From an uncultured Chthonomonadaceae bacterium (GTDB taxonomy: Bacteria; Armatimonadota; Chthonomonadetes; Chthonomonadales; Chthonomonadaceae): a DNA stretch of 64,000 bases. Made by a program: the position numbers and the translations under genes. The DNA lies in assembly GCA_963817895.1 (NCBI GenBank), contig CAWFQB010000001.1, positions 864,001 through 928,000 on the forward strand, in the 5' to 3' direction. The notes beneath the pieces are model-generated. The model saw only the letters and a program-made list of their open reading frames with translations, was not told the origin of the DNA and did no database searches. Shown here one piece after another: positions 31,394 through 33,276 of this stretch. The stretch's first letter is position 1, and the number at the start of each line of letters is the position of its first letter.

Positions 31394-31819
31394 TTGCTCG
31401 CGATTGATCCCGGCACGGCGAAATGCGGCGTAGCCGTCGTTGGCTCGGACGGCCACATTCTGCATCGGGCGATTGTGCCGACGGGGGCGATTGTGGAACA
31501 GGCGCAAAGGCTGATTGCCGCGTATCATCCGTTCCTCGTGATATGCGGCAATGGCACGGGCGCGAAGCCAATTTTGCAGGCGCTGCAAGCGGCGCAACTC
31601 GCCATTCCCATTCAGCCCGTAGACGAAGCGCATACGTCGGAAGCCGCTCGCGTTCGCTTTGTTCGTGAAAACCGTCCTCCGCTGCTGCAACGCCTGCTTC
31701 CCCGCAACCTGCGTACTCCCTGGCTTCAGTATGACGATTATGTAGCCGTAATCTTAGCCGAACGCTACTGGCAAGCCGCTTCCGAACGCAACAATTCACC
31801 CTCCAATCCAGTCAAGTAG
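31277..31819 (+). CDS. YqgF/RuvX-like RNase H-fold nuclease
   Basis: LLAIDPGTAKCGVAVV, VDEAHTSEAAR, DDYVAVILAERY. Confidence 0.85.
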   Translation: MKDEDREEGRGKREEESSSQLSTLNSQLATHPSSFILHPLLAIDPGTAKCGVAVVGSDGHILHRAIVPTGAIVEQAQRLIAAYHPFLVICGNGTGAKPILQALQAAQLAIPIQPVDEAHTSEAARVRFVRENRPPLLQRLLPRNLRTPWLQYDDYVAVILAERYWQAASERNNSPSNPVK

Positions 31820-31848
31820 AGAAACCATTCTACAACTACAATCATACT

Positions 31849-32298
31849 ATGAGCAACGAAGCGGACGAACCACAAAAGGTTGAATTCAAGACGCCATTGG
31901 AAGCGTATCAGGCGTACATTGACAGCCTGCCCGACTGGCTGCATACGTCCGTTAAAGCGCGGTGGGTGCGCGAGTGGGATAACAAGCCTGCTTCCAGCGT
32001 ACACCAGCCTTCAGAAGCGTTTAGCGCTCTCATGCGCCGCTTCGACGCGGAACAGCGGCAGATTATCGCATCTCTGCTTGAAGAAGAGCGTCACAGCAGC
32101 ATTTTTGACTGGTTCCATTGGCTGAACGATCAACTGGCTGTAGGCGGGTTGAAATTAATGTTCCATAACGTAGAACTGCCTGTCGAGCCTTACGGCGAGA
32201 CATTATACATGGATTGGATGTGGCGCTTGAGCGGAGAGGCGTGGCCCGTAGAGGGTCGGGACTGGCAGGACGCTGTTGATACTGCACAGGAAGAATGA
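31849..32298 (+). CDS. Hypothetical protein
   Basis: 149-aa ORF; its last 11 codons are a duplicated segment (see findings). Confidence 0.7.
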   Translation: MSNEADEPQKVEFKTPLEAYQAYIDSLPDWLHTSVKARWVREWDNKPASSVHQPSEAFSALMRRFDAEQRQIIASLLEEERHSSIFDWFHWLNDQLAVGGLKLMFHNVELPVEPYGETLYMDWMWRLSGEAWPVEGRDWQDAVDTAQEE

Positions 32299-32309
32299 GA
32301 GACTAAGGT

Positions 32310-32678
32310 ATGAACAGCAACCCTGCTCTGGCGAAGTTGTTTGCAGAATACATCGGCGATGACCGTGAACACGGATTTACCCTCAAAGACGGTACAAAAT
32401 GTGAGGGATGGCTAGGTATGGAGTACAAGGCAGACGGGGAAACCTTTGACTATGACGCGGATTACGTCGTGTTTATGCGCGCTCCAAGCCCCTTCGATGC
32501 TCCCGATGTAGACGCGCAATTGACCGAAGAAGAATTATTTATGGGCATCAAGTTGCCAATGGCGAACATTGATCTGGACACACTATATTACTGGGATTAT
32601 GCCACGCGGAAAGGATGGCAAAAGTTCGATAGCGTAGCCTTTTTGCTGACGGGAACAGGAGACAATGAGCAGGCATAA
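32310..32678 (+). CDS. Hypothetical protein
   Basis: 122-aa acidic ORF with SD-like AAGGT. Confidence 0.7.
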   Translation: MNSNPALAKLFAEYIGDDREHGFTLKDGTKCEGWLGMEYKADGETFDYDADYVVFMRAPSPFDAPDVDAQLTEEELFMGIKLPMANIDLDTLYYWDYATRKGWQKFDSVAFLLTGTGDNEQA

Positions 32679-33162
32679 TCGGGTCAGTTCGGTTCCATTA
32701 GAGTATCACTCGCTGCGTTTCGCCAAAATGCTGTTCAAGCGGTTTCCACAGTGGAAACCGTATTCGGGCCACTACGTCAAACAAGAGGATGGCTTTCCGA
32801 CCTACTATCTGGATGTTGCTATTTCCCCTGTCAATCCCAACGTTACCGATGCGCTTCGTATTACCGCCTATCCACGAGAAATCATCGTTCAGTGGCTTGG
32901 CGGCATACACTCCCATTTCGACGCGCTGTTTGGGGGCAGTACATTAGACTACATGGAAGCATCTCTTGAATTTATAGAGCGCATTGTTGCCGACAAAATA
33001 GTGTTCGGTTCCTATATTCAGGATGGCAAGCCAACCGGGGCAGGGTTCTGGCACGATCTCAAGACTGCGCCCTCTCCAACATGGCTTAACATCAAACAGG
33101 GTTCCATAATTATGCGTTCATGGCATGGCGTTTATGACGCGGAGTTGTTTGCAAACATCTGA
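32665..33162 (+). CDS. Hypothetical protein
   Basis: 165-aa ORF overlapping the previous stop, GGAG SD. Confidence 0.7.
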   Translation: MSRHNRVSSVPLEYHSLRFAKMLFKRFPQWKPYSGHYVKQEDGFPTYYLDVAISPVNPNVTDALRITAYPREIIVQWLGGIHSHFDALFGGSTLDYMEASLEFIERIVADKIVFGSYIQDGKPTGAGFWHDLKTAPSPTWLNIKQGSIIMRSWHGVYDAELFANI

Positions 33163-33276
33163 CGAAAAGGCCCCGTTTACCCTCCGAGCAAATTAAGTAC
33201 ATACGCGGCTTTGATTTGTGGCTCACAATGAAGCAACACTGGCAGGATGCTGTAAACGCGGCAGAGGAGGAATAGC

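Follow-up and report, generated by a model that had tools for sequence, protein, structure and literature searches.

A repeated gene end between small accessory genes of an uncultured Chthonomonadaceae bacterium: probable scars of insertion with target duplication

Introduction

Insertion with long target duplication was reportedly described by Nobusato et al. in 2000, the accretion of ICESt1 and cis-mobilizable elements (CIMEs) is said to take place at fda, and Jackson et al. in 2009 are said to have dealt with C-terminal displacement and orphan modules at Rhs loci. In an insertion with long target duplication, as set out by Furuta, Abe and Kobayashi (2010; PMC2853133), an insert without mobility genes is accompanied by the direct duplication of more than 30 bp of otherwise unique target; the same article gives 46-bp repeats for Haemophilus, which overlap a gene end by 15 or 2 bp. 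Tandem islands bounded by repeats of the 3' end of a gene, some of them without integration genes, are described in two further articles (PMC3146451, PMC5704250), and at the ssrA islands of Dehalococcoides the open reading frame (ORF) dsiB runs into the repeat and has a variable C-terminus (PMC3146451). A study of loci for contact-dependent growth inhibition (CDI) also treats orphan modules (Poole et al., 2011; PMC3150448). Here we describe a locus that is to be compared with these systems. It lies in a window of 64,000 nucleotides (the whole stretch of DNA that was analysed) from an uncultured Chthonomonadaceae bacterium (GenBank assembly GCA_963817895.1, contig CAWFQB010000001.1, positions 864,001 to 928,000 of the forward strand), where three copies of a short motif, the first in the end of a gene for a YqgF/RuvX-like protein, delimit two segments with small genes.

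This gene (31394-31819) is called the anchor. Copy 1 of the motif is at 31767, copy 2 at 32261-32298 and copy 3 at 33238-33275. The source genome, a 7.48-Mb assembly, is labelled G000; together with two other genomes of the same genus, G001 and G002, it forms a genus set of three genomes of about 22 Mb. The reading that we favour, at slightly better than an even chance, is that the locus lies in an insertion hot spot, where one insertion with target duplication, or two, left fixed scars, and is not a working cassette system. On this reading it would be a new case of a known type of recombination scar.

Results

A repeat that closes one frame and precedes the next gene

The pattern ACTGGCARGMYGCT matches the window at exactly three sites, 31767, 32261 and 33238, all on the plus strand and spaced by 494 and 977 nt, and none of 100 dinucleotide-preserving shuffles of the window contained any match. 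These sites had been pointed out in an earlier analysis of the letters without database searches (the sequence-only reading). At 31767 the frame ends in AERYWQAASERNNSPSNPVK and the stop of the anchor. At 32261 it ends in GRDWQDAVDTAQEE and the stop of the ORF 31849-32298, and at 33238 in KQHWQDAVNAAEEE and the stop of a mini-ORF of 15 codons (MKQHWQDAVNAAEEE; 33228-33275) within an open stretch of 41 codons. Copies 2 (DWQDAVDTAQEE) and 3 (HWQDAVNAAEEE) are identical at 28 of 36 nt and a stop codon terminates both. Their likeness is limited to about -3 to +36 from the TGG (15/18 and 13/21), whereas outside the repeat it amounts to 11/27 upstream and 5/24 downstream. A 33-nt degenerate version of the repeat matched copies 2 and 3 and nothing else in the whole assembly, which bears out the homology that the sequence-only reading had claimed for them. 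Copy 1 (31767-31780), in the last conserved codons of the anchor (Y-W-Q-A-A), has just its first 14-16 nt in common with the other two; the present anchor tail beyond this core, called e2 (QAASERNNSPSNPVK and stop; 31772-31819), is unrelated to them.

A new gene follows each of copies 2 and 3 at once, as had also been noticed. The stop of copy 2 is separated by 11 nt from the ATG of orfB (32310), and that of copy 3 by 1 nt from the ATG of a macro-domain gene (33277). The Glu codons of copy 3 (GAGGAGGAA) sit at the expected Shine-Dalgarno position of the macro gene and a purine run of copy 2 sits at that of orfB; thus the repeat, 36-38 nt in length, carries the stop of the upstream frame and the ribosome-binding site of the downstream gene together. 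Between the stop of copy 2 and copy 3 lie 939 nt. The two segments contain unrelated ORFs, as claimed: a gene of the DUF6547 family in the first, and orfB and orfC in the second. In a close relative of G000, from which the short contigs of the public sequencing run X1 derive, copy 3 is still open (K>E, A>P, TAG>TAA; macro ATG>GTG). With 7 changes in 50 nt it is more diverged there than the flanking genes; the contigs of this run on orfC and macro differ at 2.4-9% of the letters per listed contig.

It might be proposed that these copies lack a common origin and that ribosome-binding regions and short acidic C-terminal peptides are alike here by chance, as the motif is post hoc and purine-rich stretches such as GAGGAGGAA and GGAAGAA are to be expected ahead of start codons. 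This proposal would have to account for 28/36 identity with a common frame and stop that is unique in 7.5 Mb. It is also at odds with a scan of the ends of 21,550 ORFs of G000 (at least 100 aa, all frames, many spurious) for copies of at least 26/36 within 4 kb downstream, which gave 189 matches versus 2 with reversed probes. A chance origin of copies 2 and 3 is very unlikely, and as an account of the locus chance has next to no probability. In larger collections the 33-nt pattern had three matches in genome contigs and three in metagenome contigs, in unrelated acidic proteins or elsewhere; the genes of the locus were absent near the three metagenome matches, and a search of genome contigs for related loci confirmed no relative among 22 pattern matches.

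The tail of the DUF6547 protein

The first cargo gene (31849-32298, plus strand) belongs to DUF6547 (PF20184; E 1.6e-22, 80.5 bits versus a cut-off of 27, profile positions 3-116 of 117), and copy 2 makes up its final 12 codons. When 1.84 billion representatives were searched in full, 113 relatives were obtained; with two close ones from an earlier search these make up a family set of 115 proteins. A tail of the WQD..EE type (..DWQDxV....E) is present in 3 of the 115, namely the window protein and two close homologues (84% and 68% identical to it); the other 112 terminate at ..GDxWP plus a few, often acidic, residues. The profile match stops at residue 133 of 149. In the AlphaFold model (mean pLDDT, a per-residue confidence score, 88.3) the block means of the core are at least 90 for most of the protein, and the last two blocks of 10 residues average 74 and 63. 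The rarity of the tail, the end of the profile match and the low confidence of this part of the model together indicate that the tail is not native to DUF6547 but an add-on, in agreement with the earlier proposal that the 31849 ORF borrows copy 2 as its own C-terminus. The borrowing is old, since all three clade members have kept the tail. With Foldseek the model had no PDB match at E <= 0.001, and 'DUF6547' was not mentioned in any paper of the literature searched.

PF20184 has a single copy in G000. The gene occurs in 2 of 42 genomes of the bacterial family, G000 included, and PF20184 had no match in G002 (91% complete). G001 contains a homologue with 42% identity, elsewhere in the genome and without such a tail. 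This homologue (L005:1498-1878, G001:C2, about 1.935 Mb) has an in-frame TGA at the conserved W of the family; the ORFs flanking it we take by eye alone to be PrkA-like and YeaH/DUF444-like, and beside it is a gene of PIN-like appearance.

Copy 3 could be regarded as the decayed 3' end of a tandem DUF6547 paralogue that was mostly replaced by orfB-orfC. In the frame of copy 3 the upstream peptide (..LPSEQIKYIRGFDLWL..) shows L-P-x-E and D/E-x-W at spacings that recall the ELPxEP..D..WP of the DUF6547 family, and the 11/27 likeness upstream of the core would fit such an origin. However, a hidden Markov model (HMM) built from 92 DUF6547 members gave no score there, and the region was outside the 15 best of 1931 six-frame pieces of the window; only the DUF6547 gene itself was matched, the best score apart from it being 3 bits. 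The 75-nt spacer between orfC and copy 3 (33163-33237) likewise shows no score with this HMM, no significant fold and no recognisable feature. Since the genome has one PF20184 copy and a paralogue leaves the matches in G001 and G002 described below unexplained, the probability of this origin is slim.

The anchor end in the other genomes of the genus

The anchor (plus strand, 141 aa) has the RNase H fold of YqgF/RuvX-like proteins, with weak Pfam matches to RuvX and Tex_YqgF. Its likely start is the TTG at 31394, the ORF being formally open from 31277. Orthologues were found in 39 of 41 genomes searched, G000 included. They have a conserved end, ..YDDYVA(V/I)ILAERYW, followed by a variable, unconserved tail of 2-31 aa, so that any read-through tail on the anchor seems to be tolerated.

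Across the three genus genomes just three sites match the 16-mer ACTGGCAGGAYGCTGY, a degenerate pattern, exactly; two are copies 2 and 3, and the third is the anchor end of G002. The reversed pattern had none. The anchor of G002 ends in ERYWQDAATRGNFHHEPVK and a stop; its core matches copy 2 at 15 of 16 positions, and where this core departs from that of G000, which is at three positions, it shows the state of copies 2 and 3. Matches with one mismatch were also considered (8 sites in the three genomes), but all are internal to unrelated ORFs and were rejected. In G002 a 12-mer (GTCAAGTAGATG), stop codon included, is tandemly duplicated right after the anchor stop (L027:5444-5480, G002:C57). 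The leader of macro in G002 looks faintly like copy 3 by eye; this was not counted.

In G001 the order is DUF3084, anchor (ending in ERYWSLL and a stop), macro, a pair that looks by eye like a toxin-antitoxin pair, and a PMM-like gene. Its macro orthologue is 66% identical and starts 11 nt past the anchor stop. An exact 9-mer is common to copy 3 and the anchor tail and spacer of G001, and its offset from the TGG is nearly equal in the two. In a shuffle test such a match was reached in 1 of 5000 shuffles at an offset of at most 3 and in 9 of 5000 at any offset; for copy 2 the corresponding fraction was 0.12 and for copy 1 it was 0.37. The copy 3-like junction of G001 consists of this 9-mer plus ACTGG in a different reading frame, the G001 clade being 67-70% identical.

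Since the 16-mer is found in the anchor of G002, the anchor and macro are neighbours in G001, and the 9-mer is shared with copy 3, the repeat appears to derive from the anchor end, and copy 3 would be the counterpart of the anchor-end/macro junction of G001 and thus a relic of a former junction of this kind. To this extent the idea of a displaced anchor end, put forward in the sequence-only reading, held up. The 9-mer is shared with copy 3 and not with copies 1 or 2. The junction and its 9-mer imply that the 1.47 kb from copy 1 to copy 3 are an insertion or deletion relative to G001 that ends in the repeat. Copy 1 itself counts solely through its position and the evidence from the two congeners.

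Composition of the inserts and variability of the site

Two small genes without a family match fill the second segment: orfB (32310-32678, plus strand, 122 aa, guanine-plus-cytosine (GC) content 0.488) and orfC (32665-33162, plus strand, 165 aa, GC 0.490), which overlap by 14 nt. No match was found for the cargo genes in NCBIfam, PADLOC or PHROGs, nor for orfB and orfC in Pfam. The GC content is 0.60 in the body of the anchor, 0.544 in the DUF6547 gene, 0.49 in orfB and orfC, and 0.58, which is host-like, in the macro gene (33277-33897, plus strand; PF01661, E 2.4e-10). Further on it is 0.45-0.49 in orfE and the PIN_12 gene and 0.59 in the PMM-like gene. On account of these values the stretch from anchor to macro looks foreign and consists of two different blocks of inserted DNA that meet at copy 2.

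On the plus strand the DUF3084 gene (29621-31267) is followed by an intergenic perfect hairpin repeat (31266-31394, 24-nt arms), the anchor, the DUF6547 gene, orfB, orfC, the spacer, copy 3 and macro. The rest of the variable islet (33935-36076, plus strand), known from an ORF and family scan, comprises orfE, the PIN_12 gene and a gene for a PD40-repeat protein. It is closed by a convergent conserved gene (36219-37679, minus strand; 82% identical in G001), which we label PMM-like on our reading of it. In G005 this gene and the anchor are neighbours, with 24 nt between the alignment ends; it is 1.4 kb from the anchor in G001, 2.3 kb in G014 and 4.4 kb in G000, and the accessory genes between the two differ among G001, G014 and G000. 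At the other loci no PMM homologue was present in the flanking DNA examined. The interval between anchor and PMM-like gene is an insertion hot spot, and its variability implies that macro itself, the resident neighbour of the anchor in this genus, was an earlier arrival. Where G000 has orfE, PIN_12 and PD40, G001 has the pair already mentioned between macro and the PMM-like gene (L028:10843-11689), presumably ribbon-helix-helix and RelE/ParE-like ORFs as judged by eye. orfE (153 aa, no family) overlaps the PIN_12 gene by 4 nt (33935-34998 for the two) and these have the lowest GC of the islet; they look like a separately acquired pair of the toxin-antitoxin type.

A scan revealed no convincing terminator-like site from the anchor to the end of the PD40 gene, apart from one weak site in the end of orfC, although the promoter and terminator scan as a whole performed at chance level. 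As far as the sequence goes, co-transcription of anchor, cargo and macro is plausible.

A history of the locus and the points that weigh on it

In the history that we favour, the anchor of the genus ancestor would have run past ..ERYW into a short unconstrained tail overlapping the ribosome-binding region of macro, as in G001 today. Two foreign blocks, the DUF6547 gene (GC 0.54) and the orfB-orfC pair, would later have been spliced in there. In at least one splice some 38 nt of target, running from ..AC TGG CAG GAY GCT GT.. to the stop, would have been duplicated, so that the target sequence would now be found on both sides of orfB-orfC. The right-hand copy would have stayed before macro as relic or leader, the left-hand copy would have been read through by DUF6547 to become its last 12 codons, and the anchor would have closed on another tail (QAASERNN..PVK). 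The splice may have been an att-type integration by a recombinase acting in trans, whereby CIME-like islets without an integrase accrete, or else an insertion with long target duplication that needs no recombinase. What the sequences show are the repeats, their tie to the anchor end, the foreign tail of DUF6547, the insertion or deletion relative to G001 and the breaks in composition; we infer the order of events, their number (one or two duplicative splices) and the mechanism.

Several observations weigh against this history. The pattern ACTGGCARGMYGCT was derived post hoc from the same three sites that it matches. Copy 1 of G000 has only 12 of 16 positions in common with copy 2, and by our own estimate several matches of this quality are expected per 64 kb by chance. 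Among 120 listed orthologues of the anchor (223 found) none ends in YWQDAV..EE; the anchors of the G001 clade read YWSLL, YWNLL or YWNPL, and G001 resembles copy 3 as DNA only, with a shift of 1 nt. The present tail QAASERNN..PVK is common in kind to the closest orthologues (P0125, P0126, P0128 = G002, P0129; 91% to 75% identical), and stretches like NSPS/SPNP also occur in the tails of the genera G019 and G024, so that e2 may be the ancestral anchor tail. G002 lacks DUF6547 and has panD and other genes behind the anchor, yet its anchor has the same tail, which implies that e2 is older than, or independent of, the insertion of DUF6547. The homology between G000 and G002 halts exactly at the anchor stop codon; either G002 lost what came after, or the tail did not arrive with DUF6547. 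The 11/27 likeness upstream of copies 2 and 3 includes TGG-C.C at the same offset as the W-P motif of the DUF6547 family, which leaves room for a DUF6547-derived relic. Finally, the exact empty site for orfB-orfC, with the DUF6547 gene and its copy directly before macro, was seen in no genome, the G001 junction being the only one compared.

For the sequence-only reading these results are mixed. It had expected orthologous alleles with the ending YWQDAV..EE directly before the cargo genes, and these did not turn up among the 120 listed. It had also named two outcomes that would speak against it: the lack of a WQDAV..EE tail in orthologues, which is what was found in the listed ones, and the nativeness of the tail to homologues of the 31849 protein, which proved wrong.

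Much of this would be accommodated if the anchor were uninvolved. WQD..EE would then be a lineage-specific extension of DUF6547, orfB-orfC would have been inserted at the DUF6547/macro junction with a duplication of about 38 nt, and the likeness in Y-W-Q-A/D-A would be coincidental. The weakness of copy 1, the absence of the peptide from the listed anchors and the presence of the tail in all three DUF6547 proteins of the clade agree with this, as do the short acidic tails after WP in many DUF6547 relatives and a second case in G000, at the end of a transporter gene (below), which shows the simple pattern of one duplicated gene end. It leaves aside, however, that the anchor end of G002 fits the 16-mer exactly under the degenerate pattern and that the anchor tail of G001, with the same macro gene next to it, has the 9-mer of copy 3 at a level reached once in 5000 shuffles; in addition the tail is missing from 112 of the 115 family proteins. 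We regard an uninvolved anchor as unlikely.

Comparison with integrons and other described systems

The locus resembles integrons and clusters of attC sites lacking integron integrases (CALINs) in that small promoterless genes of uniform orientation follow a fixed point and every boundary has a repeat. What sets it apart is the lack of IntI and of attC (there is no hairpin), the nature of its repeats, which are copies of a gene end, and the number of units, two only. No tyrosine integrase was found in the window; PF00589 had 9 matches in the genome, of which the nearest on the same contig is some 176 kb distant. A Pfam scan of 54 window ORFs (out of 66 picked) detected no recombinase family. 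When both strands of the three boundary regions were folded as DNA, nothing attC-like appeared (z -1.72 to +0.86), and the stop-to-start gaps of 11 nt and 1 nt at the boundaries leave no room for attC, an imperfect inverted repeat of some 60-140 nt that folds in single-stranded form and follows each cassette. Thus the features that define these systems, IntI next to the array for an integron or two or more attC sites for a CALIN, were looked for and are lacking, as the sequence-only reading had stated for the window.

That reading had nevertheless proposed an integron-like ordered array, in which each incoming cassette brought a replacement end and displaced the older ones. Spelled out in full, a dedicated recombinase encoded elsewhere would repeatedly insert promoterless cassettes at one att-like core (ACTGGCA..) in the anchor end, maybe up to the present. 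Three in-register sites, two cassettes of different GC with a gene start right behind each copy, and breakpoints relative to G001 within the core speak for such an array, and a cargo ORF that crosses the repeat is known from dsiB at the ssrA repeats of Dehalococcoides (PMC3146451). The missing recombinase and fold speak against it, as do the mere two copies in the genome and the pattern matches in genome and metagenome collections, all at unrelated sites. The end supposed to be newest is the most widely shared: every member of the sister clade has it, among them G002, where DUF6547 is lacking; the claim that each cassette brought a replacement anchor end could not be upheld. The cargo homologues of the congeners are elsewhere and without repeats: those of orfC in G001 and G002 lie at other places in the genome, and orfB was not found in either with the orfB query. 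A repeat of the own anchor end was found downstream in none of 24 relatives scored (38 loci, 25 scored including G000, 13 dropped as a misfit to the ERYW regular expression); one match with 3 mismatches was equalled by one control match, and the test is insensitive, as it was too strict to find the copies of G000 itself from copy 1.

The tail of DUF6547 is, moreover, still present in close relatives, and the arrangement has an old and fixed look. In two of these relatives the homologues of anchor, DUF6547 and orfC stand on contigs of identical size, 1,560,039 nt (P0125/P0002/P0117) and 177,448 nt (P0127/P0003/P0118), with orfC at 82% and 78% identity, which suggests that the array is conserved there. 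Among public runs, two had small word shares (0.07 and 0.05); Logan contigs at 80% likeness gave no joints and left 31987-32420 uncovered, a result that speaks neither for nor against a conserved array. Nothing suggests a working cassette or integron-like system, and we give an integron-like array only a small probability.

In the case of insertion with long target duplication the agreement is closer. The insert is short and without a mobility gene, more than 30 bp of otherwise unique target are repeated directly, and the insert's GC content is off that of the host. The size limits used by Furuta et al. (PMC2853133) are respected, with a repeat of 36-38 nt, an insert below 20 kb and no mobility gene found. 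The set of that study was gathered for restriction-modification genes and its repeats are near-identical (PMC2853133), whereas the cargo here has no match to restriction plus modification genes: it consists of three small genes of unassigned function, the repeats are old (78% alike) and one copy is coding in the cargo. 

With the att-type islands and the accretion of CIMEs the locus shares direct repeats of the target end (28/36 between copies 2 and 3; core against the anchor of G002 15/16 and of G000 12/16), which in the described cases bound successive islands, the internal repeats parting islands of different origin. A matching site-specific recombinase was found neither in nor beside the islet. 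The islands on record measure kb to tens of kb, occur in many strains with several repeats and in some cases have an integrase. The units here measure 0.5 and 1.0 kb, have no integrase near, are confined to this lineage and have a left-most 'att' that is barely recognisable.

At Rhs and CDI loci a newly acquired gene end reportedly comes together with a companion gene; the former end is displaced downstream, where it persists as an orphan that includes part of the conserved region, which is a likeness. What is displaced there are toxin domains that are subject to diversifying selection and paired with immunity genes, one each. The end considered here is an unconstrained tail of 10-15 residues on a housekeeping-type protein with a nuclease fold; the anchor, a 141-aa YqgF/RuvX-like protein, is no toxin, and this is therefore not a displacement of that type.

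A second duplicated gene end and other observations

The gene-end scan of G000, a search that the sequence-only reading had suggested, had a stop at the end of the copy in 83 of its 189 matches, and 17 were left after filters for unrelated flanks and single matches. By eye most of these were dispersed repeats or antisense ORFs; one was a clear parallel. The last ~52 nt of a gene for a major facilitator superfamily (MFS) transporter, up to the stop, recur 3.5 kb downstream (G000:C1:447500-455500, minus strand; L089: 5350-5401 and 1841-1892). Within the insert are an HNH gene, a 711-aa ORF whose match to an MmeI methyltransferase is sub-threshold (23.3 bits versus a cut-off of 27), and other ORFs; no integrase family was detected among the four inner ORFs scanned. 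Compared with G002, the homology stops 11 nt before the MFS stop, and the flank is too short to show an empty site. This case looks like an insertion with long target duplication of a restriction-type islet, and it is nearer to the published type than the locus behind the anchor.

The hairpin before the anchor, through which the formally open anchor frame would run, is one of two intergenic perfect hairpins (31266-31394 and 29517-29614). Its 24-nt arms (AAGGATGAAGG..) surround a centre that is purine-rich and then pyrimidine-rich. The summed contig depth in run X1 was about 220, versus 0-6 for its neighbours, which points to a dispersed repeat family. Rfam gave sub-threshold miRNA-like matches only for the hairpin repeats. 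About 7 kb upstream of the locus a TnpB/Cas12f-like gene is located (22986-24449, minus strand; OrfB_IS605 and a Cas12f1-like TNB domain). At 12657-14941 an AAA_21 gene (AbiEii-like ATPase) is followed by a DUF4276 gene, which has the look of a defence module. RlmN appears to be split into two ORFs, 19695-19967 for the N-terminal domain and 19992-20786 for the radical-SAM part; a frameshift, a stop or an assembly error may be the cause. Outside the window, at about 586.5-586.9 kb of G000:C1, a 36-nt unit (GGTTGCAACCC..CCCCGTAGGGGATTGAAAC-like) is repeated 76 nt apart and looks like a CRISPR repeat.

Discussion

The repeat at this locus may have been used more often than the scar reading supposes. 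The sequence ..TAC TGG CA.. after the last conserved codon of the anchor could have served three times, first for macro in the genus ancestor, next for orfB-orfC and last for DUF6547, each arriving with a homologous leader of ~38 nt that closes the upstream ORF and supplies its own ribosome-binding site. Such a 'gene-end cassette' mechanism would operate with a recombinase in trans or without one. We consider it distinctly improbable. If it were true, it would be an undescribed way of slotting single genes behind conserved genes, with new C-terminal tails on the cargo as a by-product.

Together with the case at the MFS end, the locus adds to the instances in which a duplicated gene end bounds a small insert and no recombinase is to be seen. 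Long target duplication was named between 2000 and 2010 and, to our knowledge, its mechanism is still unknown. A single case does not make that question testable, but a collection of such cases could.

On the reading that we favour, of one or two fixed insertions with target duplication, the locus is a readable history of a small accessory islet built between two conserved convergent genes in a Chthonomonadaceae-like genome of the Armatimonadota. Its by-product is a displaced gene end that was reused as the C-terminal tail of an incoming protein and has long been kept.

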